Of a DNA stretch of 64,000 nucleotides, positions 92 through 51,206 are shown piece by piece. Numbering within the stretch: the first letter of the stretch is position 1; each line of letters opens with the position of its first letter. This DNA comes from Balanoglossus misakiensis. Lineage: Eukaryota > Animalia > Hemichordata. The position numbers and the translations under genes are program-made. The notes under the pieces were generated by a model. That model was not told the DNA's origin, searched no databases, and saw only the letters and a list, made by a program, of their open reading frames with translations. The stretch spans positions 4,882,303 to 4,946,302 of the forward strand of contig CM082582.2 in assembly GCA_040954595.2 (NCBI GenBank), read 5' to 3'.

Positions 92-3920
<3,829 letters not shown>

Positions 3921-23869: not shown

Positions 23870-23903
<34 letters not shown>

Positions 23904-28094: not shown

Positions 28095-31000
28095 TTAACG
28101 ATGCGTGGAAGCCCGTCCTGTTTGGCAAATAACTCGTGAGCGACTTTATCTCTCATGCAGGCGGGGGAAAACCTGCAAAACATATTCGTCGAACTGTTTT
28201 ACGGAGAATGCGTTCCGGACCTTCGTCTCCTGCTAATAGATCCTGTTTTGATGTCAGGAGTTCACGGAGCTGCACGTGATAACGTTATGCATCTTTATAC
28301 GTAGCACGCAGACACAGTGTCCTACTTTCATGGGTGAGTGTGGGAAGGGTCGTCGATTTTGTGAAAGACTTGGCTCTCGTCATGTTTTATTGCAGTCTTT
28401 GAAATGTCATACGTTTTGTACCAACAAACGCGGAGCTATACACACAGAACCCACCCATCATTTGTGGCCCGTCTCACCCACATTTTCACACTCTGTATTT
28501 TTTTCTTTTACAGGTTTTAACACTGTATTAAAGACCACCAGACCTGAACTTAGAACTTCGTGGTTGCGTGTCTTTCTCGCTTTTCACCCACAATACTGTT
28601 CTCTCCCGCCTTCTTTAACATATTGTCCCATACTGACACTAAAAACTTTGAATGATCACTGCTAGTTTGTTTCGTTAATACATGTATAACATCATAGATT
28701 GGGACAATATTATTATATATTTTAAAGAACACTGCATGGTTTTCCAGGCAGAGCGATGCCTATATTGAACGGGAAATTGTTCAAATTCTTCGGATTTTCG
28801 TTCAAGTTTCAGAAATGCCGTTGGGTTACTTCGAAAAGAAATAAAAGAAACAATATAACGCGATGTTTTGTTCTTACTTTCTTTGGTATTCACCCACACA
28901 GTTTCTTCATAGAAGAAGCCAAGCCTTGCTCTTTATATTGGTTAGAGTTCAAATTAAATCAGCCATAATATAATTACGGACGGATTAAGCTCAAGTATAG
29001 CGTTACCGTGTCCCAAAGTGGCGTGACCGTGTCTCAAATAACAACCCAGTGCAAAAGCGGTTGGACACCTGCTTTGGCATGCACCCAGATTCATAAATGA
29101 TCATTCTAAGTAAACGCTGTATTCTGTACATGTAAGGTTGTCATTAGAAAACCATTAGGGCGTGCGGTTGTTTTATGATCAATGACGGTCTATTCTGGGA
29201 AAGGGGTAATGTTTTAAATCGGTTAAATTACAAAGACAAAATCTATACTGTACTAGGAAATAAGGAGTTACGGCCAATTAGATGCGTTACATGCATATAC
29301 CCATATCAATAATGACCGGCCAAAAAGTCATGTGACATGTACCAGGAATAACGGACGTCGATTGCATCATCATCATCATTACCACCACCATGCACCACAA
29401 CCGACGAAGTCGACGGTCGTCACCATGGTTTCTGTCGAGGATACTGGTATAATTAAAACAGATATGTGGAATGTGGAAGGCAGTTCCTTTGAGAATATTC
29501 TCAACACTGACGAAGTTTAGTGCTTGCTTGTTTCTGTCCAATGTTAATACTCAACAGAAGATGTACTCGGGTACATTTAAATGGTTACAAAGTGAAATTG
29601 GTAAAGAAAATATTCCCCCAAGTAACTCGATGCCACCGTAACCGTTCCGATGTATTGCAACTTAGTAAACCATTAAAGGCTGGAGTCACTGTCCATTGAA
29701 TTGCAGCAACTGGCGTGACTCTACTGCTTTGCAATCTGCCAGCAGAGACTCTGGTTCTATGGTGACAGCCTGAGATATTCTACAACGCCCACGGTTCTAA
29801 CTTAAACGCCAACGCACACACCCTTGAGTTTAACTACCTGATCACATTATAGTACAACGCGGATCCACTGATAAGAACAACAGTTATACAAATAAGGTAT
29901 TAATAGGGGGGGGGGGAGTATGAATAAGAATTCACTTAGTGGCTTAAAACAATGAGCTTGTAATCAGCACTTGCGTGTGATGTGAAAACAACCAATACAC
30001 ATGCAAATACGGTTTGCATGAGGTTTTCAACCACGAAGGGTTTTTTACAACCTTTACAGTTAGTGTGTAGTGTGGCCATACATAAATTCATGCCCTGTAC
30101 GAACGACTGACAGAATTTAATCTATGAAACGTTCTTACACTTCCATTTATATCTTGTTATGTGATTTGTCCCTTTTGCATGGTAATGGCCGCCACCCACT
30201 GGGGTATATACGAGGACAGGCGAAGTCGTGACACATTCATAATATTTCTAGGGTCCTCATTTGATTTGTCTTGATTTGATTTCGATATCTACATATCTGC
30301 TTAATCATCTTTTCATGGAAGCAATATTAAAAAAATCTTGACAAGAACTTCACAAATCTAGTTTTTTCCGTTGAGAAAAACATTCCCATCTCTCTGTTGC
30401 ACTTTCCTTTGGAGAGATTACTGCTTCCAACGTGATATTAAATAACTGCCTGATACTAATTTCCATTGATTTATTCTTGTTGCAATAAGTACCTTATAAT
30501 ATCGAAGTACCGTTTATCGAATTTTAAGATTTATACCCTCTTGCGATTATTGTCGGTTAAGTTTCCTGTGGAGTCTGAGTTGACGAGTAATACCAATTGT
30601 CAAAATCGGACGTCCTGTCTGTAATGATATAAGGCCGACATCTGTCTAACTAGATGTTCTATCCAAAACGCTACCTTATAAGGAAAGTCGTTTTTCGAAG
30701 TTGGTAGCCCTGCATCAATCGACATTCAGCCGAGTCACTGTGATTTTCTTAAGGTGGCATCTAAAATTTCTGTTTCAAACAAACAAGTGCGTTGTAATGT
30801 CATGTCCATGGTTGTATCAACATCCATGCGTCAGCTGTTGCTTGGTGACGATGTTTCGGAAAGTTCCACGTCATCAGTGAAGTACAATAAAACAAACTTG
30901 ACACACGAACCGTGACGTCACACCTGGCGACTTGGTTTCAAAGCGCGAGCCGCCGGATGTCTACAGTTAAGTTTTCAATGAGATTCATTTACCAACAAAG

Positions 31001-32340
31001 CACTCCTGGACGCTGAATAGCAGTGGCGCAATTGAAGACATCGTAAAACGGTGGAAAGTTTTTAACTTAAAGCCCTCTATTACGTCATGCGCCTTTAACA
31101 TTCATGTCACCCGGGCCATCCACGTCACGTAGTACGCATTCATACGCAATCGGAAAATCCTATTACATCAAGTGAAGGGCTGAACTTGGCGTCTGAGCGA
31201 AATGTTCGATGTAACAATTGCAAATCCGCAATTCACGCCTAACGTATTCGCTGCACAAGCGATGATGTGTTGAAACTATATCCGTGCTTGAATTAACTTT
31301 TATCAAAATAAAAGAAAAACAAAATAGAATATCATAAGTATTAAATTAATAGAAATTTGAGTCAAATGTAGTTTGTTTGTTTAACGCCCGTTTTCGTAGT
31401 TTTGAAGTCAGTCACCGTCTCAAATAAAAACATTTTAAAGTACGGTACACTACGGGGCGGTACTAACATTCCAGTACTAGGCTTGGTCAGTTACCGGGTG
31501 AGACAGGTTCAATACAGAATGTTTACAATGTAGTGACTTTTTAATAGTCTGGAGATTTAATAACCGGTTAAAAGTAACCGTCTAATGGTTTTTGGACACT
31601 GACAATCAGCAATGATCTATCCGAAGACGTGTTTGAAACCATGAGTAAAATATCTACAACTTGGACAGGGATAACTTTAAGTTGAACGCTTTTCAATCGA
31701 GCTACAAGAGTTGCAACACGCCGGTACTGCCAAATCAAGACCCCCCCCCCCCGACCCAAAAGTACACAGCCACATCAAAACCCGATTTCCGTAATTTATT
31801 ATCTTTTATCGAGGCCAGACATTTCTTTCAAGCTATGTTAAACATCTAAATACACTAGAATAAATTGCTGATACCAGCTTTTCACCTCTTGAGAGCAGGT
31901 GTGGTAAAAGTATTTGCCAAACACGAACTCTGTCACGTGGAGGGGAAAGAACACTCACTCATCGGTGCGTAAATCAAAATTATCTCCAGACGGCACTTAG
32001 GCCCCACTCGTGACAATATAGAACTTTTCAGGTACACTTGTAGAGAGATATTTCTTGGAAAAAAACGACTCAGTATAAAAACAAATAAAAATGTAAAATC
32101 CTGATAGTACTTGTATACTAATACCAATGAAATGTTATTTTATGGACCGCAATATCACCAGCCTTATAACCCTTGGTTTTTGAGTGTTTATTTACAAATA
32201 TTAGGTATCCTGGCTACAGATCCCGTGGGGTACGTGTATCCCCTTTTATGAATCAACATTTCGTGAACCCACTCCTTGATTGGTATGCATGGGCGGAACC
32301 AATGGCTTTCAATGGAGCATTAGCATACGTCAAAGGGTGG

Positions 32341-32561
32341 TACATAAATAGGCGCCCTACAATAGCGGCGAATGAGTGCATTTTAGGAACGTCAGATCAC
32401 ATAAAGCTCTACCGTTGGTTGTACACTACACTACACTGTACTGTACAGGTTAGAGTAAGGCCACACGACTAGTGAACTGAACAGCGAAGTCGAAGTACTA
32501 GGGTTGGGGATCGGACACGAAGCCATACTGTGATAAGGAGCTCAAACTTGATGTTTTGCTG
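32341..32561 (+). promoter_or_regulatory. TATA-like promoter and non-coding first exon of PPPTM precursor gene A
   Basis: TACATAAATAGG at 32341, ending in donor G|GTAAGT at 32561/32562. Highly similar to the reverse complement of 42424-42644. Confidence 0.75.
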
Positions 32562-35500
32562 GTAAGTTTTGTCATGTTTGCGCCTTGCACGTGTGGATTA
32601 TATGGCACACGCAGCCGAGACATAGAACGAACGTTACACTGAGATAGCATCGTCTTACTCGACACGTTCATTCATGCTTCAAAAAAACCGCAACTGTCAG
32701 GCAAGACAGACTGTGGGCGTTCACGCTGCTGCTAGAGGATAACGTTGAATTTCACTGTGAAGTTTAGTCGCCGAGTACTTCAACTGGTGACTATGACATT
32801 GCCAGCTCCTGATAGATTACGAAAGATCAAAAGTTCAAACCCGTCGTAATAACGAGTTTGATTTTCGATAGTAAGCCGTGTGACTACAATCAAACGTTAC
32901 AGTGATGCACGCCCAACTGTTGAACTCCAAACATTGGTTATCTTGCAGTAAACTTTAATTTTTTGACGTGTTGTACGCGAACTATTGTTCAAATCTTTTT
33001 GTGAAGTAGTAATCGCGACCGTAGAGTACTAATTGCATTGAATTATCCTTAGCTTGATTCTAATATGTTCAACAGACGCCCATTTATTCAAAGGTGATGT
33101 ATCGTTCGTCCATTGTACGACGCTGCATACCTTGTCAGGGCCAGCCATGTTTTCTTTTCAATTTCGCTCCTATAAAATCAATGCACCGTGCCGCAGTGTT
33201 GCTAAAAATAGGCGTTTTAGCATAATAGATAAATCAAGCCTCCAAGTTTGACCATACTCTCGGTTATCCTTGGTTTAACTGACTGAGTTGTTAAACAACA
33301 GGTGGTCGACTGGGCAAACGTCGTCACTTTCTCTTCTTCAAGTTTTAGCTTACCGAAATCCGTTCGAAAAATGAGAAAAAATGAATGAATGATACACCAT
33401 GTTGTCAATACCCTTCACTGGCTGAAGTTTGTGTGCTGACATCGCCCGAGGGTGAACGTTCTCGGGTTTTGAAATTCAAATCAACGCATTTTTCCTTGAC
33501 ATGTCTACGGTCTATACGGATGGCGTATAATAGGGGCCTATTATACACACACTCAACTCCTAAAGAAAAAGAAACTTGTGCAACCTTCAATGCCATTATT
33601 GAGGTAGAAACGATTCGAACACAAGTAGGAAGACATCAGACAATACTGATAGCTACGAACGTTCCTGCGGACGAACCAGACAGCAATCGGAAAATCTCAA
33701 CCACTAAACGATTGGGTAAACATACAGCAACGCTATACTGAGTCTATACGATTAAGTACTTAAAAGTATTTCGCAATTTAGGTGTGTCGATTCAGTTGAC
33801 TTAGATAAGCACTCGTACAAATAATTATTGCAGAAGTTTAACATGTCTGCAATGACGGTTAATGGAACTGCTGACCTAATACTGTCTAATCCTCATCATT
33901 TCCCAATACACTAGTCACAATAATGGTTTGTTTACGTGGTTTTCAAGCATTGTATTCTGTTAACCGTAAACTTTGAACATTCTTTGTGTGTTTGGAAAGT
34001 AAAATCGGGTTGGCCGGAGATTACACTAACCACCGTTACTTAAGCTTAATAAGGGTGTATTTTTAGCCCGAATTGCGCGCGGTATTTATTGTGGTGTCGT
34101 CATGACAACCACTGTGTCTATTTTTCCTCTGGCGGTATGACTCACCGAAAAAGTATTGAGATGCATCTTGAACTGTATGTGAGTATATGAGGATTAAAAT
34201 AGGTACAGGTTGAAAGATTGCACGTATTCGAGGGTGGGGAAGTTTTAAACTGTAGCTGTGCCGAAATATCACACGAAAATTATCGGATCCTTTAGTCGTG
34301 TTTCCCCCAAAATAACGAATCAAATATACGTAGAATATTTCAATCGGCAGAAACAAACACGGATTCGTGTTTTTGAGTAGGTCCCTTTTATATGTGTTTG
34401 ATGGATTTTACTTTAAGCTGCAGTTTACAAAATCACTGGATTACAAGGATCACTGATATTACCGATGGAGTTGTTTAAGTCTGGTGATAAAGTGTATAGT
34501 GGGCAATCGGTTTCCGGTTGCTGTCTAACATTCCTCCGAATACCCATTTAAAGAAGACTTCAAATGTGGGTTTGATCTATGGTTTTCTTCAACATTTATT
34601 GTACAAAGGTATTTGACCCAGTTTCCGATGGCCCCACGAGTTCCTTCCCGCGACCATTTGCGGTTTCCCCGCACAAGGTATACGAAAAAAGGCGAAGTGG
34701 ACATTTCCGGTTGAAATAGGTTATCATCATTGTGTTTGTATTTTTCATTCTTGAAGCACCGTTATCAGATTAGGCGGGGATTCTTTTCACGGTCAGGATT
34801 AAGTCAGAGAATATTTGACATCAGAGCTGCATGGCATTTGGATGCGCCCTACCACACCTATCATTAATTTCTAGTTTGTCTGTCACCTGTAACTGGCAAT
34901 GACGTAGCCGATATTCCTGCGTATATTTGGGGGGGGGGGGGGGGGGGTTGATGAAAAGTCAAGTGCCTTGATTGAGGGCATGATAATATAGTTATGTATA
35001 GGGCTTGAACTCGCCATCCTCATACGGTAAACCTATATCAACCGTCATAAGCTAAATTTAAGACAACAACCATGCACAGCTGTGTAAGGAATAACAAGTG
35101 ATGAAAACCACCATAATTTCGATCGTCGTCGACGCCATCTTCTCAATCGTCGAGCTATATATGATTGTTATCTGCTAGATCGACTGAAGGTATATTTTGG
35201 GTAGCCGATGTAGATAAAAGGGGGTGCAAGAAAATTTCGACAGAATAAGAAAAAAATAGAGAAAAAATAAATGAGGTGAAACAGGCAGACGGTAAAATGT
35301 GACTATTGTATACGAGGAATGCCGTCAGTCAGCATCGTCGAGATTCATTCCGCCCCACCTGCTTGCCACATCTAAATGTACAATATCCGGAAGGTAAGAA
35401 CTCCGTCGTCGACACGCCGTAAAATGAACGGAAGTGAGTTGGTAACAAGGAGTGGTTCACCAGTGGCTGGGTCAAGTGTTGTTGACCCCAAACTCTTTGG

Positions 35501-36452
35501 CCACGCCCTTCCCTCTGTCGGTCCAGACTTCACTTCTCCTTTACACGCAGATCGCGCCGACTGATCTATCGTGGTGGAATGTGGTAAATCTTCAACTCTA
35601 AATTTTGCTGAGTCATTCGAGACAAATATGCATTACAGCCACAGAGAATAATCTTTTTCAGCAAAACACTTCCAAAGCAAGTAATTTGCAACAAAGTTGA
35701 AGGATTTATAAACTTATTTTTTGAGAAATATCAACCATTTTGAAATGAAAAATAAATCAGCGGATGCTACATGCATTGTGACATGACATCTCACGCTGAA
35801 CTGAAGTGTATTTAAAGTGAATTTGATGTCGTTTTAATGATATAGGCCTAATCATGTACAAATAATTGCAGCGTCTGTCACCCTTTCTGTTGTGATTAGA
35901 AATTATTCACAATTCGTTTTAATGGAGCGATGGACAGATCGACCTAAAATTGCCTGTCCTTGGGATGCCAAGCAACTTCGTCTGTTATTATCGTCAACGT
36001 ACACATCTTGTTTTAATTCAAACGTTTCCCCGATGGGCAGGGTGCAGGGTGTTTGATACCCTCAAGGAGTTTACCTTGATGTCCCGTCAAAGGCCTCTCA
36101 CATGTTGTATATATATAGCTGCATTGGTAATCGTCTCCTGAAATTCCCTACACGCCCATGGCCGGTAGGATTTCTATTAAGGTGGCTCTAAGGGTGCCCC
36201 TGGTAGCAATCAATCATTGTCTAGCAAGATAAATAACACGGTTGACTTCGCTGCAATGGTAACCTCTTTGTCCGTCGCACCCACCTGTTGATTTACAAAC
36301 TTTGTAACGCGTCGCTGACTCGACGATTCGGGACAAAAGTGAATTACCTTGATTAAGGATTCGGCATGCAAAACAGACCCTTTCAGGAATTGTAGTTTCC
36401 TCTCCTAAACCCCGAAGAGTTTATATTTTATTCAATCTCAGGTATAGGAGGA

Positions 36453-36530
36453 TAGACTGAAAGATTCAGTCCTGTGCGGGCGCTGTGACCCTTAGGGGAG
36501 CACTCGCACACGACTGAATCTTTCAGTCTA
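36453..36530. mobile_element. Short hairpin MITE in intron 1 of precursor gene A
   Basis: TAGACTGAAAGATTCAGTC...GACTGAATCTTTCAGTCTA inverted repeat. Confidence 0.7.
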
Positions 36531-36846
36531 AAGTATAAGGGAACCTGTACAATTCGAATCAGGCATTTTCACCAACTGTTGGCAATAGGTGCGCATCGTC
36601 AACGCATCTTTGTGTGTATTTTCGTGATTCTCGCAGTATTATATTTTGAAACGTGTTCAAGTCGGAAAATGGTACTAGTAATAGTTTAAGTATGCTTCAG
36701 GACACAATTTCTTTATCTGAGGAATCGTGGCACCATGATTATTATTCTCTGAGCGACAGACTACAGGCATCCCTTGTGTGTATAATTAACTCCCATGTTT
36801 ACACATGTTAATATGGATATTCTTTCTTTCTATCTCTATAGGGTGA

Positions 36847-38420
36847 ATGTATTCAAGAAATAAAATGGTAACTTCATTTCTCGGCGTGTTCTTCTCTGTG
36901 TGGTGCGTCGCTGTCACTGTGGAAGCGAGAGCTCTGGCAGACATAGCCAAGACAGGCGACATTTTGAATGGTTTAGAAACTTACAAGAGTGAGGCGAGAA
37001 GTGGTATCGAGGCTCGTGGTGATGATGGTGCAAAGGTAAAATACGACCTTTTAGAAGAATTAGATCTTCTGATGAAAGCGCTGAATAGTAGAGACGACGA
37101 ATCAACTGCCAGTCCAGCAGCTGGTACCAGTTCTGAAGAACACGATAACCAGTGGCCACAGCCGACTGCAAACAGTGGACAATCAAGCGAGGTCGCCGAA
37201 CCATCTGAATCCGATGAAGACGTATCCGATGATCGGTCGGATTCATCTTCCAGTGAATCCGAATCAGAGTCCGAATCAGACGACAACGATGTCCCCGATA
37301 CATCAGATTATGTGCTTACACTGCTGCAAGAAATCTTAGCCATACTTGAAAACAGTGACAAGGTAATGATGTTTTTAAAGAATATCTCTCTATCTCTCAA
37401 TGATCTCCACACCTCCCTTCCGATCCCCCTCCCTCCTCATCCCTGTCTTTCAACTACGGACATCGAGTGGTAGAGATGACAGTACATCATGTATATCGTA
37501 TAATTAGACCAATTTCTGGTGACCTGTGGCACTCTGCCTTGGAGGTTATCCGAATAAGCGAAGGCTAAAGGAGACCATTATTGCAGCACAATTATACAAT
37601 TTATATCCTTGTAAAGACATTATATTATTGTTATTCATATTAGGAAGTGCTGCCTTCACCCTCAAGAAAAGACATGCGCCCCCCGCCGACAATGCGAGAG
37701 GACGAAAGTAAAGTTCCACCAACCCTGAAAAAGGACGCAAGACCGCCACCAACTATGAGAGAGGATTCAAGACCGCCGCCAACAATGAAAGATTTGTTGA
37801 ATGAAATTCTCTCTGCAGATTCTAGAAAAGACGAGCGCCCTCCACCGACAATGAGAAAGGACGCAAGACCGCCACCAACTATGAGAGAAGATTCAAGACC
37901 GCCACCAACAATGAAAGATTTGTTGAAAGAAATACTCTCTGCAGAATCCAGAAAAGACGAGCGCCCTCCACCGACAATGAGAAAGGACGCAAGACCGCCA
38001 CCAACTATGAGAGAAGATTCAAGACCGCCGCCAACTATGAAAGATTTGTTGAATGAAATTCTCTCTGCAGATTCTAGAAAAGACGAGCGCCCTCCACCGA
38101 CAATGCGAAAGGACGCTAGACCGCCACCAACTATGAGAGAAGATTCAAGACCGCCGCCAACTATGAAAGATTTGTTGAAAGAAATACTCTCTGCAGAATC
38201 CAGAAAAGACGAGCGCCCTCCACCGACAATGAGAAAGGGCGCAAGACCGCCACCAACTATGAGAGAAGATTCAAGACCGCCGCCAACTATGAAAGACTTG
38301 TTGAAAGAAATTCTCTCTGCAGACTCCAGAAAAGACGAGCGCCCTCCACCGACAATGAAAAAGGACGCAAGACCGCCACCAACTATGAGAGAAGATCAGA
38401 GAGTGCCGTATCATCATTAA
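36847..38420 (+). CDS. Secreted multi-copy peptide precursor A (~430 aa; exons 36847-37362 and 37644-38420), with 17 x-x-R-PPPTM copies, mostly D-[A/S/E]-RPPPTM
   Basis: Hydrophobic signal peptide (VTSFLGVFFSVWCVAVTVEA), acidic Ser/Asp/Glu pro-region, phase-0 intron AAG|GTAATG...TAG|GAA, then PPPTM units separated by RK/KK/RE/K. Confidence 0.85.
37733..38395 (+). repeat. Coding higher-order tandem repeat, 126-bp (42-aa) unit, ~5 copies
   Basis: Unit: DARPPPTM-RE-DSRPPPTM-K-DLL(N/K)EILSA(D/E)S-RK-DERPPPTM-RK. Confidence 0.9.
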
Positions 38421-38434
38421 TGTACATTTTGTGG

Positions 38435-38548
38435 TAGCTGTGGTAACGCAGCTCACAGTCCATCTTGAGGGACTGTGCGCAGCTGTACTGTCGTGACGTG
38501 GGGGTAATCAGCACCCCCCCCAATGGTACAGCTGCGTTACCACAGCTA
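38435..38548. mobile_element. Hairpin MITE with ~9-bp target duplication, just after the stop codon of precursor A
   Basis: TAGCTGTGGTAACGCAGCT...AGCTGCGTTACCACAGCTA flanked by ATTTTGTGG / ATTTTGTTG. Confidence 0.8.
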
Positions 38549-39798
38549 ATTTTGTTGTAAAACGCTCAGATAATAAGCTCTATGACGATTGATTTCGATC
38601 AAATCGATATCCACGTGGTCAGAATTTCACAGCACCGGCTGAAGCACAATTTTGCACAGTATGGGGTGTGCGTTCTATCGTTTGCAGGTTTGACGTACAA
38701 GTGACTTGATCACCCTTTAGATGTATCAAACGAAAAACACTGTAAATGGAGAACCAACTATTCGGACAAAATAACCAAACGCTGCTTTCTGCTTGAAAAA
38801 CGCCCGTCGATTGTGAACCAGACGAGAAACCAATATTGTAGTTCGGACTCTGAGCAGCCGAATAGGCCACAAGTTTGGCTCTGTCACATGTAAGTCACTG
38901 GTTAGGTCTAATCTGATTAAATCCGATGTCGAGATGGGTTGGTCTTTTCGCTTGAATCGATTTTGTGGTCTGTACATATACTAGTACATATATTTAACAC
39001 GTTTCTATGACATTGACTGCCATTTGACGTAAAATTGTAGTATAACAGTTCCTGAAATTTGTTGTCCTTTATACTTGCCACAGTCATTTTTCCATTTGTG
39101 AGTCAGTTGTGTTGTTCCATGCAAAGTATTTTTTATCAATTTGAAACTAAAATGAAAACATATCAAACTTTATGTAGGGGACTACCCAGAATTGATTCAC
39201 AATTCAAGAAAACGTTATCACAGAATTGTCATTTTCTTGATATTGTACATGTGGTTTGACTTGTTGGAACATGGTTGAATATCCATCAACTGTACACAGA
39301 AATGTAAAAAAGGCGACTTTGTCCCTTTCATTGGAAAAAAGTAGTCTTTATTTTACATCAATTGATGTACAGACAGCATAAGTAAAACAGATATAAGGAA
39401 AGTGACATTAAAAGCAGATTTTGAGTAGTCCCCTACTTTTAAGAAAGTAACACATATCAAACACTTGATTTTCGCAAGCTTGTGATAAAACAATGGCATT
39501 CTCGTTTTAACTTAATTTAATGACGTAATCACCCAGGAAAAAAATACAGTGTATTTATATATTCGTTATAAGTCGTTTCCATGCCTTAAATTAACGTTGT
39601 CTGCATTTTGTATCTCGTCGAGGGGCCAGTAACCCTTAACTGCATTTTTTTCAGAATTTTATATTGTATGCAAAGTATGAAGTTTCTCTTTTCAGCAAAT
39701 TGTGCTGAAAGACCTGGTATTCAAATTGTCATCAACGCAACCGTGACCAGTTAGAGTTTTGACAACTGGACACTATGATTTGTCAAGGCGCAAATTGT

Positions 39799-39799
39799 C

Positions 39800-39855
<56 letters not shown>
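39799..39855. repeat. (ACA)n microsatellite
   Basis: Direct reading. Confidence 0.95.
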
Positions 39856-40101
39856 ATACGACACCAACAAATACAACAACACTGTATTTAACATATTCTG
39901 TGTTGACATATGTTGGAATGCGGGGTCTTCAACATGATGTAGGGGGTAGAATGAGGTACACAGAACACTAGGCTACTGCTCCTTTAAATAATTGTGTCAA
40001 TGTTTTATCGTTAACTGTCGCCTCTATTAATTGGTGTAATAAATCAACATATTAAAGTGTCATTTTTTTATCCATAAAGTACCGCAGTCTTCTCCTTGTT
40101 C

Positions 40102-40845
40102 TCAGCCTACGGACGGCTTTGGGTCCCTCTTCATGGTTGGTGGCGGCTTTGGGTCCCTCTTCATGGTTGGTGGCGGCTTTGGGTCCCTCTTCATGGTTGG
40201 TGGCGGCTTGGGGTCCCTCTTCATGGTTGGTGGCGGCTTGGGGTCCCTCTTCATGGTTGGTGGCGGCTTGGGGTCCCTCTTCATGGTTGGTGGCGGCTTG
40301 GGGTCCCTCTTCATGGTTGGTGGCGGCTTGGGGTCCCTCTTCATGGTTGGTGGCGGCTTGGGGTCCCTCTTCATGGTTGGTGGCGGCTTGGGGTCCCTCT
40401 TCATGGTTGGTGGCGGCTTGGGGTCCCTCTTCATGGTTGGTGGCGGCTTGGGGTCCCTCTTCATGGTTGGTGGCGGCTTGGGGTCCCTCTTCATGGTCGG
40501 TGGCGGCTTGGGGTCCCTCTTCATGGTCGGTGGCGGCTTGGGGTCCCTCTTCATGGTTGGTGGCGGCTTGGGGTCCCTCTTCATGGTTGGTGGCGGCTTG
40601 GGGTTGTCTCTATAATTTAGCGCTCTAATCAGAAGATCCAATTCTTCCAAAAGATCGTCTTGTACGTTTATGACATCATCACCTACGTCACCACTCCCCT
40701 TCTTGCTGTAAGTTTCTAAACCATGCAAAATGTCGTCTGTATTGGTGATGTCTGCAGGAGCTCTCGCTTCCACGGTGACAGCGACACACCACACAGAGAA
40801 AAACACAGCGAGAAGTGAAGGTGTCATTTTATTTCTAGAATACAT
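40102..40845 (-). CDS. Secreted multi-copy peptide precursor B (247 aa): 1x DNPKPPPTM, 15x DPKPPPTM and terminal DPKPSVG, all separated by KR
   Basis: N-terminal ~80 aa is clearly paralogous to precursor A (MYSRNKM..FFSVWCVAVTVEARA.ADI..T.DIL.GLETY...DLLEELDLL..ALN.RD). Splice acceptor 5 nt before the ATG. 30-bp coding repeat. Confidence 0.88.
   Translation of the reverse strand: MYSRNKMTPSLLAVFFSVWCVAVTVEARAPADITNTDDILHGLETYSKKGSGDVGDDVINVQDDLLEELDLLIRALNYRDNPKPPPTMKRDPKPPPTMKRDPKPPPTMKRDPKPPPTMKRDPKPPPTMKRDPKPPPTMKRDPKPPPTMKRDPKPPPTMKRDPKPPPTMKRDPKPPPTMKRDPKPPPTMKRDPKPPPTMKRDPKPPPTMKRDPKPPPTMKRDPKPPPTMKRDPKPPPTMKRDPKPSVG
40113..40603 (-). repeat. 30-bp coding minisatellite, ~16 units
   Basis: TGGCGGCTTGGGGTCCCTCTTCATGGTTGG repeated on the + strand. 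Confidence 0.97.
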
Positions 40846-41053
40846 TCACCCTAAAGAGATAGGAAGAAAGAATACTCCTATTAACAATCTTATGTAAACA
40901 TGGGGGTTAACGTATTATACGCTGTAGTCTGTTGCCGAGAGAATAATAATCATGGTCCCACGATCATTCCGATAAAGGAATTGTGTCCCGAAGCATACTT
41001 AAACTAGACTTCTATTTTTTCTACTTTATCACATTTCAAAATGCAATATATGC

Positions 41054-41137
41054 GTCAGGATGGCCGAGCGGTCTAAGGCGCTGCGTTCAGGTCGCAGTCT
41101 ACTCTTGTAGGCGTGGGTTCGAATCCCACTTCTGACA
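41054..41137 (+). tRNA. tRNA-Leu(CAG)
   Basis: GTCAGGATGGCCGAGCGGTCTAAGGCGCTGCGTTCAGGTCGCAG...GTGGGTTCGAATCCCACTTCTGACA: canonical A and B boxes, CAG anticodon, long variable arm, T5 run just downstream. Confidence 0.95.
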
Positions 41138-41147
41138 AATATTTTTC

Positions 41148-41485
41148 ATGTGTCACCTCTGAAAAGATACTGGGTTTAATTTTAGACAATTTTATTTCAT
41201 GGGACAAACATATTGATATTTTGTGTCTTACTTTGAGTCGGAAAGTTGGACTACTTAGGCGCCTTTGTAAATTCATTCCTTTACACCTTCGAAAAGTTTT
41301 ATATTACGGTTTGATTCGATCTGTCATTGACTACTGCTCTTTTGTGTGGGGAAATACGACTTCTAAAAATATAGATAAGGTTTATAAAATGCAGAAGCGT
41401 GCCTTAAGAGTAATACTTAATGCTGATTTTGATACCCCAACTGATGTACTTTTTGAAAGATTCGATGTGCTATCTGTTAGACACC
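41148..41485 (+). mobile_element. LINE (CR1/L2-group) ORF2 C-terminal fragment
   Basis: EKILGLILDNFISWDKHIDILC..LSRKVGLLRRL...LYYGLIRSVIDYCSFVWG...MQKRALRVI, typical of the non-LTR RT thumb region. Confidence 0.85.
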
Positions 41486-41599
41486 TAAATTTTACTTATG
41501 TGCGATTTGGCATCATTGACCCAAAAATGTAAAGTCAAACGTGTTTAGTATGGAATCCCGACTGTCGGGATTCCAGACCAAACTTTTATGACCATACAC

Positions 41600-42095
41600 A
41601 GCAAACCTTTCCACGTTAGACATTCTAGACACATAAAACGCGAAAAGATGAAAACACTGACTTCGAAACGTATTGCGACCCACATCAGCATGTCGAACAT
41701 GGTAATTACATTGCCCGTTTACCATGGAAGACTGATCATCCGCTGTTGCCAAGCAACTACTCCACAACCGAAAATCGCGCACGTGCAAGGGTCCGTCGTT
41801 TGTCACCAGCGCTGACATAAACATACGATGATGTTATCTATGATCAAGTGCGCCGTGACTTCGTCGAAAAAGTTGACAACCGCAAAAAAACGCGCGGTCG
41901 AAGAAGACTCTGGGCCTACCACAACTCCAAGTTGTATTGTGTACAACTGCAGTGCAAAGCAAAATTCAGAATTCGTCGAATTTGAATGACTGTTTCCAAA
42001 CCGTGCCGTAAGTTTACTGATAAACGTGATTTTCTCGGCATGCGATGTGCCGCGATTTCGCGCCAGCCATGTCGCCCTTACCAGTGACATTGACA
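41600..42095 (+). mobile_element. Decayed BEL/Pao LTR-retrotransposon pol fragment
   Basis: YIARLPWKTDHPLLPSNY...RARVRRL..*.YDDVIYDQVRRDFVEKV, IVYNCSAK and RFRASHVALTSDI motifs, interrupted by stops and deletions. Confidence 0.7.
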
Positions 42096-42423
42096 CACCA
42101 CTCGCCCTATACACAAGTGGCATGTCGCGACAGAGAAGGCCAATGATCCGCCCACCCCAAGGAGATCTAGAGATGCGGCCGTTGAAGCAAAGATCAGAAT
42201 TTTGGACTGTGCAGACTTTTGACAATACTTGTCGAGATTTTAAACACCTTTCATTAAACTTTTTTTTGTTTCTGGCCCTCTTTATTCGTATGTGCCATCC
42301 ACTGAAAATCTGATCTCAGTTTGCCATGGTAACTGTCGCTAATTTTTTGCTTAGCTGATTGTATACCTTAAGGTAAGTCCGACTCTTTAGCGACCATGTT
42401 CATAAATACCACGACAAACTTAC

Positions 42424-42644
42424 CGGTGTAACATCAAGTTTGAGCTCCTTCTCAGAGTATAGCTTCGTTTCCCCAACCCTAGTTCTTCGACTTCGCTGTT
42501 CAGTTCACTTGTCGTGTGGCCTTACTCTAACCTGTCCAGTACAGTGCAGTGCAGTGTAGTGTACAACCAATGATAGAGCTTTATGTGATCTGACGTTCCT
42601 TAAAATGCTCTCATTCGCCCCTATTGTAGGGCCCTATTTATGTA
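42424..42644 (-). promoter_or_regulatory. TATA-like promoter and non-coding first exon of PPPTM precursor gene B
   Basis: Inverted homologue of 32341-32561. TACATAAATAGG starts at 42644; donor G|GTAAGT at 42424/42423. Confidence 0.75.
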
Positions 42645-43294
42645 CCACAACCGTGACCACTTTGATTTTTTGACAACTGGACTTTCAATATGGTACTTTT
42701 GATTGTAATTGGTTATTTGCCATGGCATCAACCGTATATTCGTAGCCATAACAATCATACCATTGTCATCATTCAATAAACAATGAGGACATTAGTAGAA
42801 TTATACTTCCATCTGTCAGATAAGTCACGCTATAAACAGTTTATGTATTTGTAAAATACAATTAATTGGCAAGTTCCTCCATTGAGAAATGTTGTTTTCT
42901 AGGAATTCGAGTTGTCGAGCCTTGATATTTATGTTTTCTGCTTGCAAACATGCACAGTCATTACTAGGAAATCATTTTTTGGCACACATGTAAACATATG
43001 ATAGTATGCACTTATGACCTTTTTGCACTGACGTTTTAATTGGTGAAATAAATCGACATATTATCGATGAAATACCACAGTCTTCTTCTTATCCTTAGCC
43101 ATCGGTACGAACGAAAACATTTTGAATTTTTGGAAATTCCTAATACCCATGTGCACATACGACGATTGGGTTTGTAACCGTTGCAATAGACGTATTTCAT
43201 TTGGAACAAATGAAATACGTCAAATGGGAATAAACGGATGTCGCACACTGCGAGACTTTATACGTGGCTAGCCAGTTAGTTTTGGAAGACATTT

Positions 43295-44284
43295 TGTCAC
43301 AAAGTGTCTATAGTGTTGTGTGTTGTCTTGTGTGTCCAGTGTTGTTTTTGTGTGGTGGTTAAAGGTTAGTTAGGAATTGCTGCACGTCTACTTGTCTGAG
43401 GTGGTTAGACCATAGACAGTAGAGGGGGGGGGACAGTCAGTTACACATCTTAGCATCGAACGGCTTTGACAAAATGAACTCTGCTATGACACACAACCAT
43501 TGGGAGTAACTGCACATGGAAATTCACCAGCCCTGGATTACATAATCTCTGCACTGACTTGGTCGTCATGAATAATTCGGAGGGGATAATTCGGAGAGAA
43601 AGTAAAACAATAGACAGTGGAGAACAGTGGACAATCATTCTGAATAAATTATTGTAGAAAAATATGAACAGCAATGCACCTGGAAGGTGGTATAAAAGGC
43701 TGCGTGCCCATTCTTGAGGGAGAGACTGACATGACAGCCAGCGGTAGCACTGAGGCACTGTGTGTGTAATCCTACCAGAATCTGACCTGCCAGGCCTGTT
43801 TGGCGAAACTACAACGGTGACGGAGTTTTCCACCAAGTGTGTACGAGACATCCTGTGCGGCCACGGATCGACCATCTTCTCGATGAAACTGGAAAGACTT
43901 ATCTATTCTGCGACCCATTTCCCGGAACATTGTCACTACTGAACTCACGGGTAGGGCAAACTTTCGATAACCACCTGTTAATGTCTTTTGTCATGTTTGT
44001 ACCGTTTCATGTCTTTGTGTTTGTGTTTTGTGTAATATTTCTTTACTGTGCATACGGTCCACTGGTATTTTGTCTATAGTGGCTGTCCCTGTACAATTTA
44101 TTGGATCCATCGATACAATTCTGCAAGTTGAATAAATAGTCTATGCATAAACGTAATAATGTTTCTGAGTTTTACGATTCCCGTAGTAAGGGGTCCCCAG
44201 CACAAAAGAACCCAGTCACATGGTCTGAAGGAAAAGCTACCTGGTACTGCCGCAGTATCATCCCTTGTATCATACCTTGTGACA
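43295..44284 (+). mobile_element. Solo LTR (990 bp)
   Basis: TGTCACAA...TTGTGACA termini with a perfect 5-bp target duplication CATTT (43290-43294 and 44285-44289). Internal TATAAAAG at ~43691 and AATAAA at 44131. Confidence 0.85.
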
Positions 44285-44916
44285 CATTTCAATGTGACAC
44301 AGGGAAAAAAAACATTATCCAACTATCCATTAACGCAAATCGCACCATCATAGTAACGGTGTCATTATAACGTGTTCAATATGGTACTTTTAGATTGAAA
44401 TCAGTTATTGCCATGGTATCAACTTCACTTTCTTAGCCATAAAAATCATACCGTTGTCATTATTCGATAAACAATGAGGATATTACTAGAATTGTAATTC
44501 CGTCTGTCTTTTTAGTAATATTATAATAATTGTATGTATATGTAAAGTAGGATTGGTTTGATTGATTCTCACCACTATGGAAGAGAAACAACGCTTGAAA
44601 TGACCAGGGAAGCTTAATTATTCTCGCTAATAAGCTACGGGGGCTTTAATAAGTATACAGCATCGGTGTGGTGTTGATGGTTTGGGCCTTTGCTCCCCCA
44701 AACAGTTCCCCCCCCTTCAAATACATAACCTATATAGTGCCTGGGTGAATGAGTACAGCATGTAAGTCTGGACGAAACCAAATCGGCACTGCTATAGGGA
44801 AGCACAGGGTGAAAAATGTGTAATTATGAGATCGAAAAAAAATGTCGTTTGTGTTGTGATTTCCTGGCTCTAATAAAATCGAGCAATCACACTTATTTCT
44901 TGTCGGCGTTTTGATA

Positions 44917-45130
44917 TTAAAGGGACAAAGTCTCTCTGTCGCTGCCCTGTTTCCATTAATTATGTTTGATACAAGACACTGTTTATATTATTCTACATGT
45001 GGATATATAGGGAATCAACGTTCGACCACACACAGCTTCCATCCCGTTTGTAGGATATGAGAGTAAAGCTCTCGCCAAAATGAATAAACGGTAGAGACCG
45101 ATTATTCTTTTTGGCGCGTTTTTCACTCTC
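44917..45130. mobile_element. Truncated copy of the 10764-11111 TTAA transposon
   Basis: TTAAAGGGACAAAGTCTCTCTGTCGCTGCCC...TACAAGACACTGTT...CACACA matches the left arm. Confidence 0.8.
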
Positions 45131-45783
45131 GTGTCATATGTAACACCAGAGCAAAGTCTGGATGGAGCGGAACTGGCACGCACCAGTTGCATACATAAAC
45201 GGAACAGGAAATCGGGCAAGTGACCGTGTCCACTGAACTTCTGGTCGTTCATGTTGTTGGGCGCCCTTGAAAATTAATCATATTAGTTTTGTGATAATGA
45301 GCATTGTTTACTTTTGTTTGGAATCCTATTACCTCTTTACAAACTAATTATTCCGGATTGGGAATAATTAGGGGAAGGTGAACTGATTTGAGATGACTTA
45401 GGTTACTACTGAATGCTTTCTCCTTTTTTGAAACTTTGACGATAAATGAAGCAGCGGACATGTTCTTTAGAACAGCGCGCGTTTGGTTATTAAAGTCCAA
45501 GTGTTTACGGCGTACTGTTAGAATAATGACTCTCACAGTGAAGATGGGTTTCGCTTTTTCAGCATTCGCGTTTAAATGGGTATAAGGAATGTGGGAATGT
45601 GCGTGTACCCGCTTCTTGTGAATTTCTATTTTAAAAGTTAATTTAATATTTCATTATAAATGTCATATAAAAGAGACAACAAATTGTTAAACCCAAGTAA
45701 TGCCATTAATTCGATAAGTTGGGAAGGTTGGCAGTTTTAGCGACAAGAAGGCGTTTTTGTGAGAAAGGATTTAAGTTTACAGC

Positions 45784-48700
45784 ATGCATCAAATCGCAAA
45801 GATGCCACAGGTTAGTACATTTCAGTTAATTATGATGAGCTGGCTCTTGAATTACCGACGTCAGTATCCAATTTTTTTTTAGCAAACACGCTTGAGGATT
45901 CTCGTACATAAATCCCAAGTTTTGTTTCAGACTGTGTTTTAGATTTTAGCATCACGGAGATCGTGTTGAACTGGTTCGTATCTTATTTGGGGGACGAGAC
46001 TAGTCGGCTAAGTCGTGTTGGAAGCACAATCTCTCTCAACTGTGTTGTACCTCAAGGATCCGTTTTACGACCTATTTCAATCTTTATACTGGCCTTACAA
46101 GTTAGACATTTTTTTCAAGCATAAATTAGATTGCACATCGCCTGTATATCATTTAATGATACTCTTTAATGATACATCTGGTTAGTCATCTACCTTAAAC
46201 GGGGGATTTTTTTTTCTTGCAGACACAAAATGGCGACTGGACGTCCACCTGTGGAATCGGCAGATTTCGGCCGCCGTGGCTCCAGCGTTTGGCAAACACA
46301 AAGAGCGTCCTGTTCTTGATTTCATTCGCCTGGGTCGTCATCGCCATGGCTTCGAGCATCACCACTGTCAGTATTTCCACCTTGCAAAAGCGCTACAACC
46401 TGTCCAGCACCACGATCGGAATCTTCACTTCTCTGAAGGACGTGGCCGACATCACCTCCATCGCCGCCTGCACTTACTACGGGGGCCGGGCGGGCAGCAA
46501 CAAGACCCGCTGGCTCGGCGGCGGGCTCTTCATCTTCGCCGCTGGACTGTTCGTCGCCGCGGCCACGCAGTTGGCCTCGGACAAATACGACTACCAAACG
46601 GCGCGCTTCGATGTCGACGACAACACCACCGATGTCCTGGAACTTTGCGACGGCGCTGCAGAATATCAAATTGGCTGTGACAACAAAAAAGTTGCAACGT
46701 CTTTCATCACACAAGGGTCTGAACCGGCCATCTTGATCATGGTGGCCTACATTCTCATGGGGCTTGGTAACACGCCACTGTTCACATTGGCCATAGCATA
46801 TATCGACGACAATGTCACCAAAGCAAAATTGCCAATGTATATGGGTAAGATCGCAAGGGATTTAATAAAAACACGGTAAACTAGATCAAAATAACGAGAG
46901 ATACGGTTATATGAATTTGGTCATATGCAAACGAGATAAAAATCGTCCCTGAGTTTGTATAAAAATTCCGGAATGTGGTGATTATTCAATTTTTTCGGAC
47001 GTTGATCCATCCTCTCCAACTATCATCAAAAGTGCAAAAACTTTTATCTTCAGGGATTTTTGGCAGCCCACTGAGCTATGGAAGTATTTGTACATCGCAG
47101 TACTTGCACAGGGCGTGTATTACTACTACATCAAGTTTAGATAATATGATTGTCTACTTTGAATGAATGAATGAATGAATGAATGAATGAATGAATGAAT
47201 GAATGAATGAATGAATGAATGAATGAATGAATGAATGAATGAATGAATGAATGAATGAATGAATGAATGAATGAATGATGGCACTGACGCGGAACCTTCT
47301 TTTTTTCTTTTTCCTTTTAGGCGTGGTGCAAGCGTCGTTCACTATCGGTCAAATAATTGGCATGCTACTAGCTGCATACTCATCAAAGATTTATGTCGAC
47401 TTTTATCGCGTTGACATTGACGCACTTGATTTGGACGAGAGAAATCCGCGGTGGGTCGGCGCTTGGTGGCTCGGGTACTTGCTGGTTTCGGTTCTGGCTT
47501 TGGCAGCTTCTTTACTGATCCTTCTTATGCCGTCGGAGATTCCGAAAGAGTCGAAACGTAAGGACCAGTTAATGATGACCAGTAAAGAGGATGAAGAAGG
47601 CAAAGAAAACAAGGCGGAAGATGTTGTCATTGACGTCCCTCGAAGATCTCTGTCACGCTTTAAAGGTAACGGGCACTTTCAATAACATCATCACATTCTG
47701 TTTATACAGGTTAACAGAATGGCGACTTACAATCAACATAGAATCGGCCATTTTCCGAACACCACGAGACCCTGCGAGATTTCGCGTGACAAGGTAATTT
47801 ATATTGGACGACATTCTTGTGACACATGACAAACAACACATGGACTAAACGGCACAAAAGTTAGACTTTTCGATAAACTCTGCACCTATTCTAGTTTCAT
47901 ATAAAGCTCGATTGTATTACTTGGCTACCAACCCGTTGCTCGGGTAATTGACCAAGTCTCGCGAGATCTCGCAATGAGCGCAAAATCATCTATTCAGGTC
48001 ACATAGCAGTCTCTCGTAATCCAGATACCTCTAACCATGCTAACCTGCTAAAGAGCGGTGTAGTATAACCAATGTCCACTCTGACAAGCGTACAAGTACA
48101 TATCTAATACTCAAGGCGGACTTGTGGAAATTGATCAGTATGAGAACAAAAACAATTGATTGACTACCAGTGTACTACTATACTTGGTCAATTGGGAGCA
48201 CAGTGTTCTTGACGCTCTTTTTTTTCACATGAACAGAGACACTACGGGCCATCACTCGACTGTTCACCAACGTACCGTTCATCAGCTTAGTCCTGGCCAG
48301 AGTGATGTACATGGCAATGTTTCAGGGTTCGATTTTCCTTCCGAAATACATAGAAGAACAATTCAGAACAACGGTAGCTTTTGCAAGTGCGTTTTTCGGT
48401 AAGTACGAAAGATTGTGCGAAAGAACGGGTTAATATATATGTTTACGTTAGGGGAAAAAAGAAAAAAAGTGAAGTATCAACGTGTTTGCTTCTTTGTGGC
48501 ACGTACATACATGTATATGTGTACAGGTGCCCAGACGGGCTGGTGACATGGACGTACGGCTATGCATGGTTACTAGTAACCGTGGGCTAGCTGTGTGAAG
48601 GTTCTAGTATTATATTCTAAACTGCTCGCAAACACCACCTGGTATTACGGCAGTGGTCAATATCACCCATGCATATGATACTATAGTTCTTACAATGACT

Positions 48701-51206
48701 ATACAAGCTAAGGACTATGGATATTTGAGTCCCCATTGGCATATTTCTCAGTGTCTGATGGAAAGAATCAAAATGATATCCAGGACCTCGAAATACCATT
48801 CTAGTTTTTGCTTCATTCAAGACATGTACATTATCTGCAAGCTGCATACTCTCCAAGGTTTGACAATGGACATTTTTTCTCGTACAGCTGTCACTATCTT
48901 TCCAACCGGAATCCTGGGATTTCTTGTCAGTGGGATTTTCTTACGTAGATGGAAACCCAGTCTCCCGCAATTGGCCACTTTTGCGCTGATCTCGACAGCA
49001 GCGATGGCGTGCGTTCCTCTTCTGGGGTTAAACATTGGATGCAACACAGAGAAGTTCGCCGGTGTCACAGAATCGTACGTGCAAAGGCAAGTTTCTGAAG
49101 TCTAATTGTGCCGTTTGAATATCTCATGGTCTATCCTTAATTCATGGTTTCAAATTTGAAAGTGATTTTGCGGTGGTCCTTTTGGTACTGAGAAGACCCC
49201 ATCTGCTTGCGATTGATTAATTATTATGTATTATGCGGTCATTTTTTTACCACCAGGGCGTTGGAGACCCCGGATGCACAAATGTTCAGTGGCGTGAAGT
49301 CTGCATGCAATTCCGATTGCGCATGCTCATCCACCTATGCGCCAGTTTGTGGTCCTGAGGACACCACCTATTATTCAGCTTGTCATGCTGGATGCAAGCT
49401 TCGTCAAGACGTTCAGGTAATTTGAAAACGATACACCATTTTCCGAACTCCTGCGAGATCTCGCGTGGCTATAGGCAGTTCATGTGGGAGAACATTCTCA
49501 AGTGACTCAAGACAAACGGCACATGGGCAAACGTTACAATGTAAACTCTGCACTTATTCTATATTCTGGACTTGTAATACTTCGCTAGCAACCCATTGCT
49601 ACGACAACTAACCAAGTCCCGCAAGATCTCGCTATGAGCGGAAATCATCTATATAAGTATGAAATTTGTCTTTTCTATCCGATGTAGATATTTGAGGCCT
49701 GAGAAAAATGGAAATACAGAAAAGACCAATACAAGTTTTGTATATGCTTATATACAGTGAATAATAATATGAGAGCACCACATGGCCTCTTGGCACCATT
49801 GGAATCATAACCCCACGTGTGTTTTGGAAGTTATCCAGGCCACGTGCTTCGAAATGTCATGTCCGCGCTGGTGGTTGCGTCCCATCCAATCAAAGTGTGA
49901 ATTTCTATTGGTCTGAGGCCAAGCAAAACTAGTTTTTGGTCTATTGAGTGTCTATTTTATGAAAACGATAACGTACAAATCTATCCTTTGAGCGAGTGCC
50001 TATTTCATCAAAGTGATGCCATGTTCCCTCGTCTTATCATCTCATTTTTTTCTGAAAGAACTTTACAGCCTGCGGATGTGTCAATGGGTTAAATCACACC
50101 GTTGAGGGCACTGTACGTACAGGGATGTGCGGCCAGCCTTGTCCAAACCAGTTAATGCTGTTTGGCTTGACGACCGCTTTGTTTGGATTCGTCTTTCCGT
50201 TCGTTGTCAATTCTGAGATGACTTTACTGTTGAGGTAAGTGGTTACAATTTACGGGATGCTGTGGTATTGGGACTAGGGTTTGGGCGACTTCCGTGTCAG
50301 TAATTTCTGTTTTAAATACACTGGACGCCGAGATTTATATAGGTCAAGAATTATGGCTCGTTCTAGTTTTCATCAGTTTCCAAGCGATTAGTGTTTACAC
50401 GATGAAGCTGGTTTAAGAATTGACTTAGGCCTATACGTAAAAGGACGGTGTCATTAAAATCCAAGAAGCTGCTTCCAAATTCCAAGAATGTAAACGCGGC
50501 GAATTTAACACGACCGACACTTGAGTGCCACGTGGCCATTTTCGAGAATGGCTCACCATACACATGATCTAGCAAATAATGTGAACGACTACGTACTTAG
50601 AAATAATACAATCGCCGTGTACAACTCAATATTCAAATCCCAAATATATATTTTACAGATGTGTGTTGCCGACTGATAAATCTTACGCACTTGGTATTCG
50701 TGTGATTGCTACGGAAGTGCTCGGTATGTATTACTTCAAAGCTCCACGAGCTGTAACTTTTTGCTGTGTTTTCAGCATTTCTGTTATATTTATATACTGA
50801 GGTTTATTTTACCCCAAGATGATCCCGTTGAAATTGTCATTGTTTTCCCTTATTTCTTTCTTGGACCTGGTAATTAGTTAACCTTGAATGATACTGATTA
50901 TTGGACCTGAATTGATGCCTTCTTATATCATTCTTAACGTTTTCTGTTACCTCATTAGCCACTCTGCCGTCGCCAATATACCTTGGGGCTCTCATCGACT
51001 CCGCGTGTATTTTATGGGGACGGACGAAGTGCAGCGAGCGAGGGGCCTGTCTGCTGTACGACCTTCTGGACTACAAGACAAAATTCTTTGCTCTCATGGT
51101 GGGTCTTTTGGCGGCGTCGCTAGCTCTGTTTTTCGTTGTGTGGCTGTCGATCTACAGGCAAGCCGGTCGCCGCTCCAAACGCGAGGAAAATGTTGAAAAA
51201 ACCTGA
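45784..51206 (+). CDS. SLCO/OATP organic anion transporter. Exons (45784-45810 tentative), 46223-46844, 47321-47665, 48237-48398, 48888-49086 (donor ambiguous), 49257-49416, 50059-50234, 50659-50723, 50959-51206
   Basis: CGIGRFRPPWLQ, ISTLQKRYNLSS, GLGNTPLFTLAIAYIDDNV, the OATP signature DERNPRWVGAWWLGY, FLPKYIEEQF, Kazal-like CNSDCACSSTYAPVCG..YYSACHAGC, and PIYLGALIDSACILW..C..RGACLLYD. Confidence 0.93.
45945..46095 (+). mobile_element. Decayed LINE reverse-transcriptase fragment in an SLCO intron
   Basis: FSITEIVLNWFVSYL...VVPQGSVLRPI resembles the non-LTR RT GVPQGSVLGP motif. Confidence 0.6.
47160..47277. repeat. (GAAT)n microsatellite
   Basis: Direct reading. Confidence 0.97.

Follow-up and report, generated by a model that had tools for sequence, protein, structure and literature searches.

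In a 64,000-nucleotide (nt) stretch of the genome of the hemichordate Balanoglossus misakiensis (contig CM082582.2; hereafter the window), two genes, gene A and gene B, encode predicted precursors in which a proline-rich unit ending in PPPTM is repeated many times. Judged from their sequences, they represent a new, lineage-restricted sequence family with the familiar design of multicopy peptide precursors. We consider it quite probable that the precursors are processed to short peptides in some form. More tentatively, and a little short of an even chance, we favor a lineage-restricted multicopy signaling peptide, which would act as a receptor ligand released from peptidergic nerve or neurosecretory cells. 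As an outgroup, hemichordates are key to understanding the nervous systems of chordates, and the catalogue of their peptides has been built mainly through homology. A neuronal source, if true, would provide a new ligand family and a cell-type marker.

An earlier, sequence-only reading of this DNA had pointed out two paralogues with 17 and 16 proline-rich units, and both are present at the positions it gave. The features of the locus are as follows.

Gene A, 36847-38420, + strand: two coding exons, 430 amino acids (aa), 17 PPPTM units.
Gene A coding exon 1, 36847-37362, + strand: 172 codons, with a hydrophobic signal-like stretch, a pro-region and a Ser/Asp/Glu-rich spacer (residues 84-152).
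Gene A intron (predicted), 37363-37643, + strand: 281 nt, GT-AG, phase 0.
Gene A coding exon 2, 37644-38420, + strand: 258 codons and stop, with 17 PPPTM units, one degenerate unit and five spacers.
Gene B, 40102-40845, - strand: one coding exon, 247 aa, with a signal-like stretch, an acidic pro-region and 16 PPPTM units.
Block upstream of gene A, common to gene B, 36637-36846, + strand: non-coding, by alignment.
Gene B copy of the common upstream block, 40846-41048, - strand: AG at 40852-40851, donor-like site at 40998.
Candidate decayed peptide unit in gene A exon 1, 37144-37173, + strand: codon comparison by eye, weak.

In gene A, the array is a 126-nt repeat of 5.4 copies (37715-38396). 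Each 42-residue block holds three peptides plus one acidic amphipathic spacer of 11 residues; the block occurs about five times, with five spacers in all. The 17 units start with DAR, DSR or DER (five each), DMR (one) or GAR (one), and the degenerate unit reads ESKVPPTL. Gene A also has a 69-residue spacer with 19 Ser and 22 acidic residues, which is absent from gene B, and seven S-x-E motifs. In gene B, the array is a 30-nt repeat of 16.4 copies (40114-40604). Fifteen of its 16 units are DPKPPPTM with KR on both sides, and the first is DNPKPPPTM with a single R in front. The array copy numbers are those of the window sequence alone, and neither array is spanned by a contig from the public DNA runs described below.

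The basic residues between the units differ between the two genes. KR had been said to delimit every unit of gene B, which is true of the rear side, where 16 KR, one behind each unit, supply the convertase sites expected of a peptide precursor, but not of the front of the first unit. The delimiters of gene A, given earlier as RK/KK/RE/K, are corrected here to 0 KR, 0 RR, 10 RK and 2 KK past the signal region, a composition that agrees with a [KR][KR] pattern in its generic form although, as set out below, most units of gene A also depend on monobasic cuts. The dibasic pattern by which PMC6188537 recognizes multicopy precursors is matched by both proteins. A Gly ahead of a basic residue (G[KR]) occurs in neither protein. 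The claim that the repeats lack a Gly amide donor is thus right for the PPPTM units, but the gene B frame closes with a truncated unit, DPKPSVG-stop, whose terminal Gly could possibly give one amidated product.

The codons of the units reveal which residues are retained. PPPTM is identical in 33/33 units, whereas its P, P, P and T are written with 3, 2, 2 and 3 codons. The residue at position 3 is always basic (R or K), as is that at position 9, where R or K occurs in 33/33 units with four codons. Asp occupies position 1 in 31/33 units with both Asp codons in use. Position 2 is free (A, S, E, M or P), and position 10 is R, K, E or D. Counted as minimum numbers of changes and not as copies, the core has undergone six or more synonymous changes but no replacement change (p=4e-4); with the degenerate unit added, 6/9 changes are synonymous (p=0.014). 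Across the five 126-nt blocks of gene A, 9/13 variant alleles are synonymous (p=4e-4). From this codon pattern, we conclude that the repeat units are under selection at the protein level. The invariant [RK]PPPTM and the basic residue behind it, written with varying codons next to a free position 2, indicate that [RK]PPPTM is likely the active core of the peptide. Selection thereby marks a six-residue core with calculable masses, a precisely defined peptide target. For the candidate products, the calculated MH+ values are 882.44 (DPKPPPTM), 670.36 (KPPPTM), 942.43 (DERPPPTM), 884.43 (DARPPPTM), 900.42 (DSRPPPTM), 1029.47 (EDSRPPPTM) and 698.37 (RPPPTM).

By itself, an open frame across a 30-nt repeat proves little: 5/6 frames are open over the gene B array, and 90% of shuffled 30-nt units keep an open frame, 20% also with KR or RR. 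What goes beyond chance in the predicted proteins is the fusion of the repeats to a common signal-like N-terminus together with the synonymous bias. The two-unit DNA pattern has 25 matches in the window and 0 in 100 shuffles. Four other frames contain no invariant column with varying codons. An antisense frame sharing third positions has 4 invariant columns; we rejected it as a shadow with no link to the signal-like N-terminus.

The signal-peptide call is based on hydropathy. Each protein has a single peak (2.29 in gene A, 2.58 in gene B) at residues 11-21, followed by V-E-A, and a helix spans residues 9-28 in the structure model, as expected for the multicopy prepro-neuropeptide class. Exactly one Cys is found in each protein, within the signal stretch. 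A single-sequence model of gene B (predicted local distance difference test score, pLDDT, 55.7) displays no folded domain, only three N-terminal helices with the repeats as coil, which is weak evidence. Gene B matches 0 Pfam families. Pfam matches to gene A exon 2 (P3A, SirC_C, RelB-like) had 0 passing stretches and were discarded as compositional. The class is also defined by repeated similar peptides under selection, which the 33 units display. By sequence, all testable features of the multicopy prepro-peptide class are found in gene B and part of them in gene A. The signal peptide, acidic spacer and repeat architecture described earlier therefore holds, and the codon-level selection backs a real peptide.

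Gene A and gene B face each other in convergent orientation, with 78% identity over about 460 nt (36637-37098 against 41048-40603). Sequence comparison identifies them as tail-to-tail duplicates that have the signal-like N-terminus in common; dS between them is about 0.34, and no third copy of the pair occurs in the window. The identity includes about 205 nt upstream (159 matches, 40 mismatches and 15 gap columns between the upstream blocks). In both genes, this block holds a pyrimidine tract, an AG lying 5 nt ahead of the first ATG, and a sequence resembling a splice donor (for gene A, AG at 36840-36841 and GTATGC at 36690). These signals suggest a non-coding first exon, so that a 5' untranslated region intron likely lies behind it in both genes. 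Each gene has two in-frame ATGs (36847 and 36865 in gene A), of which the second has A at -3; either may be the start. Five acceptors were tried for the gene A intron, and the frame stays unbroken with just one of them, which ends at 37643. In the candidate decayed unit at 37144-37173, D, N, P, P and T align with the first unit of gene B.

To check the alleles, we used contigs from three public DNA runs of one sample, possibly the source of the window, that cover the locus. They run from gene A exon 1 through the intron into the beginning of exon 2. In the allelic contigs, exon 1 has 19 and 20 substitutions and 0 gaps, and none of the 12 indels listed out of 37 between alleles is a coding indel. 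At 37401-37507, within the gene A intron, 105 letters are replaced by 629 in a second allele, and about 6-8% of positions in the acidic spacer are substituted between alleles. The locus is, from these contigs, highly heterozygous. In one run, the contigs over gene B have greater depth, a difference that we did not read as copy number.

Based on these structures, we propose how the precursors might be processed. They would enter the secretory pathway and lose the signal peptide, and a cut after the basic residue behind each PPPTM would release many copies of a short unamidated peptide. In gene B, a convertase would cut after KR, and carboxypeptidase trimming would leave about 15 copies of DPKPPPTM, the Lys form. 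The Lys-Pro bond within the unit resists convertase cleavage. In gene A, cuts at RK, KK and single R or K with the same trimming would yield up to 17 copies of the Arg form. In silico, pair-only cleavage of gene A releases five DERPPPTM (5/17 units, as 8-mers), with five 30-mers left over; all units come free if the cut may fall at any basic residue that does not precede Pro. A monobasic cut is needed on at least one side for 12/17 units. We notice that selection in gene A maintains one basic residue behind each Met without maintaining a second, which fits a monobasic cut. Among the products proposed by the sequence-only reading, DPKPPPTM and DERPPPTM would come from pairs, but DARPPPTM and DSRPPPTM need single-basic cleavage, which it had not flagged. 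Gene A thus bears on whether multicopy precursors get processed without any KR or RR site.

The D-x dipeptide may then be removed by a dipeptidyl peptidase, which would halt at the X-Pro-Pro start. Dipeptidyl peptidases accept both DP and DA but are stopped from trimming further by X-Pro-Pro. The free position 2 followed by a fixed basic-Pro-Pro start suggests that D-x is a leader, while the conserved Asp argues against trimming, so we regard this step as evenly balanced. We accept the earlier label 'protease-resistant' for the [RK]PPPTM core alone, since the 8-mers may be trimmed down to it. The receptor would be lineage-specific and is probably a G protein-coupled receptor.

Some of these steps have counterparts elsewhere. 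In a sea cucumber, mass spectrometry confirmed monobasic cleavage and an unamidated Pro-containing myoactive peptide (PMC6586643). This peptide, APHAIRPPSG of Apostichopus japonicus, is ambulacrarian, carries R-P-P, is released at a single Arg and comes from nerve-ring extract; unlike the units here, it is single-copy in a 56-residue precursor, and it has no other similarity to them (PMC6586643). PC2 is broadly expressed in Saccoglossus neural territories (PMC10508912). The Hydractinia LWamide precursor (P0005, XP_057295875.1) resembles our genes in its 10-residue period and in D-x before a basic-Pro-Pro start. It carries D-A ahead of KPPGLW, and the annotated peptide, KPPGLWamide, lacks D-A (PMC8638164). 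However, that peptide ends in GLW-amide, the animal is a cnidarian, and the match is to the repeats only (E 2e-7), with none to the N-terminus. We take the likeness as an analogy of processing, not as homology.

Other multicopy precursors show how common such a design is. The xenacoelomorph LWDY, AWDF and MxGFG precursors have a signal peptide, repeats between basic sites, unamidated forms and restriction to a single clade or species (PMC6188537). They share no motif with our pair, in which a triple-proline core contains no aromatic residue, gene A is without KR/RR, and the peptides are predicted from the genes. Xenacoelomorphs have 14 clade-specific precursor types and 16 single-species precursors (PMC6188537). 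Clade- and species-restricted multicopy precursors are therefore common, and the design of the gene pair itself is unexceptional. In the hemichordate Saccoglossus kowalevskii, VIamide, WFMRFamide and NNFamide are likewise named after a repeated C-terminal motif, but all those peptides are amidated (PMC10508912), whereas our units lack an amide donor.

The earlier reading could not place the motif in a neuropeptide family, and homology, Pfam and literature searches likewise matched it to none. A gene B search against proteins of 135-433 residues gave 0/27 candidates at E<=10. When a profile built from the repeats and the two N-termini was searched against 1.84 billion representative proteins of all lengths, it gave 11 matches to the repeat part only, none of which contains [RK]PPPT. 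Ten of the 11 were looked up: nine are unrelated or unnamed repeat proteins, and one is the Hydractinia LWamide precursor. We rejected the 11 as homologues, as they are period-10 or proline-rich repeats of unrelated proteins and none matches the N-terminus. The Protein Data Bank (PDB) search gave no match below E 0.6. The best ESM Atlas score for gene B, 0.79 to a yeast alpha-factor cluster, is below the counting level and is only an architecture lead. A metagenome pattern scan had 105 matches, none confirmed; one match to the two-unit pattern (L001) was rejected because it is a minisatellite of three copies in which Asn follows Met and because it lacks a signal stretch. Viral contigs had 0 matches to the two-unit pattern.

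Of seven papers matching PPPTM in full text, none of the six listed concerns peptides, judged by title and abstract. A separate search for a hemichordate peptidome study showed none among the 40 listed of 375 matches, and the matches listed in further literature searches contained neither this family nor such a peptidome. PPPTM is absent from the supplements of PMC9793003, PMC6188537, PMC5627052, PMC6586643 and PMC8557429, in which sequences printed in figures are unsearchable. The PMC6188537 supplement has one RPPPT, in a receptor. That of PMC8557429 has 4 PPTM, and the 2 shown in the available part fall in a phoronid CCWamide precursor. The PMC10508912 supplements contain neither PPPTM nor PPPT, a weak test, as the text shown resembles manuscript or review files. 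The units end in PPPTM and carry neither the Gly donor nor the C-terminal motif of the named amidated families (RFamide, LWamide/Wamide, tachykinin, TRH, VIamide, NNFamide). In these searches, neither the precursors nor the motif showed homology to any described peptide precursor family.

Several findings weigh against a peptide of nerve or neurosecretory cells. Gene A has no KR or RR, conserved repeats are also expected of an intact protein, and the sequence contains no pointer to neurons over gonad or gland. Asp at position 1 is constrained as well and may belong to the ligand. The common N-terminus is weakly constrained (dN/dS, the ratio of replacement to synonymous divergence, 0.55, p=0.07), with 0.26 (p=0.04) in the signal region of the first 28 codons, and its replacement divergence of 0.17 is close to the 0.20 of the upstream non-coding block. 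The units are homogenised copies, so the counts above are partly non-independent. Of seven allelic coding differences translated, five alter the residue, and no stop is among them. Even with Ptychodera proteins included, the searches found no animal homologue, which indicates a turnover faster than in most neuropeptides; the lack may reflect missing annotation in related genomes.

The same processed peptides might instead be a waterborne reproductive signal, either a sperm-activating or sperm-attracting peptide of the egg coat or a spawning pheromone, which we regard as rather unlikely. The lack of a detectable relative even in a related hemichordate, the recent duplication (dS about 0.34), the very high copy number and the free-acid products fit such a role, as does the selection in gene A for one basic residue per unit and not for KR. 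In sea urchins, the precursors of egg peptides carry many copies separated by single Lys residues. Speract and asterosap precursors of echinoderms, the sister phylum, are also multicopy and lineage-restricted; echinoderm sperm-activating peptides are ovary products that occur in egg jelly and act on sperm guanylyl cyclase. They have no sequence similarity to our units, however, and asterosap is a 34-residue, disulfide-ringed peptide (PMC3528131), whereas no sequence link to described sperm-activating peptides and no disulfide ring is found here, and the strict KR pattern of gene B is the neuroendocrine norm. We further speculate, as an unlikely case, that [RK]PPPTM could be the first hemichordate gamete or spawning signal, a waterborne peptide produced in bulk from the duplicated precursors, freed by a one-basic-residue protease, trimmed to a proline-blocked hexapeptide and split into Lys and Arg forms between the paralogues. 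If true, it would be an independent hemichordate counterpart of the echinoderm egg peptides, and any reproductive role would give a spawning or fertilisation tool for a hard-to-breed group.

It is improbable that the proteins remain intact, as extended rods that may be O-glycosylated or phosphorylated and belong to mucus, to the burrow lining or to the matrix of ossicles. The 10-residue Pro/Thr-rich period, the Ser/acidic-rich spacer of gene A and its 7 S-x-E motifs would suit this function, as would the highly secretory hemichordate epidermis (PMC13554239) and the ossicles that acorn worms are reported to make (PMC9490348). Yet the units have no Tyr or Cys for cross-linking and only one Thr per ten residues, Pfam reveals no lectin or mucin domain, gene B lacks such an acidic region, and its 16 exact KR pairs would be open to convertases in most secretory cells. 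Dihydroxyphenylalanine (DOPA) adhesive decapeptides have Tyr in the repeat, and mucins have dense Ser/Thr with Cys-rich domains; with no Tyr in the units, one Thr per unit and no such Pfam domain, our proteins resemble neither.

Skin-gland defence peptides, or inhibitors of proline-specific peptidases, are still less probable. High copy number, a proline-blocked core, rapid turnover and a secretory epidermis are compatible with them, and the proline-rich oligopeptides of venoms offer an analogy for gland peptidase inhibitors. On the other hand, products of six to nine residues with a net charge near zero fall short of proline-rich antimicrobial peptides in both length and positive charge, and defence families usually diversify, whereas the [RK]PPPTM core is invariant. 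That one or both genes are silent, as minisatellite expansions in decaying or mis-assembled copies, is very improbable. Gene B ceases to resemble gene A close to a tRNA-Leu and a LINE-like fragment, so that no promoter was recognized for it, and no contig crosses either array, but the frames are intact, the splice signals conserved, the synonymous bias lies in the sense frame, the exon 1 alleles are ungapped, and none of the 12 indels above is coding.

Around the pair, the window contains two genes of the ATG8 family together with ADAT1, an OATP transporter and a frame of the GT4-conflict type. ADAT1 (22626-26817, - strand), with all exons, scores 598 bits (57%) with Ptychodera flava against 415 for the next hit. 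In a quick 27-row tree, which included 26 of the named hits and no echinoderm, it groups with Ptychodera flava (Shimodaira-Hasegawa-like approximate likelihood-ratio test, SH-aLRT, 98). By this gene, the host is likely an acorn worm (enteropneust) distinct from Ptychodera flava, and at the least an ambulacrarian. A single-exon ADAT1 search was uninformative (best 120 of 498). Two ATG8/GABARAPL2-type genes lie in tandem at 18075-18853 and 21721-22535 (+ strand), 58% identical over 89 residues, and ATG8-related reverse-strand pieces are found near 13599-13691 and 1668-1761. By these copies, ATG8 appears locally expanded in the window. Exons at about 14300-16700 (- strand) are, as we take them from their translations, TMEM231-like. 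TMEM231, GABARAPL2 and ADAT1 are adjacent in humans. By analogy, the TMEM231-like exons, the ATG8 genes (18000-22500, + strand) and ADAT1 may represent an old microsynteny beside the lineage-restricted gene pair.

Next to the gene pair, a Rfam scan of 30000-46000 returned nothing except a tRNA. This tRNA-Leu(CAG) lies within 41054-41532 (+ strand), continuing into a 151-codon frame, and the similarity of gene B to gene A stops alongside. The frame matches 0 Pfam families and is presumably a reverse-transcriptase fragment of a long interspersed nuclear element (LINE). Short inverted-repeat elements at 36453-36530 and 38420-38550, which have many loose-ended contigs, flank gene A and are likely high-copy miniature transposons. 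Further palindromes are at 10764-11111 and 54741-54895. The OATP transporter (46199-51203, + strand) is multi-exon, and the single match of one exon is from Ptychodera flava (31%). A 423-codon single-exon frame at 61394-62665 (+ strand) matches GT4-conflict (PF20706, E 4e-30), a domain of conflict systems that resembles glycosyltransferases and is seen here in the genome of an animal. At the other end of the window, the exon at 91-318 (- strand) presumably belongs to a PQ-loop transporter, SLC66A2-like by its translation.

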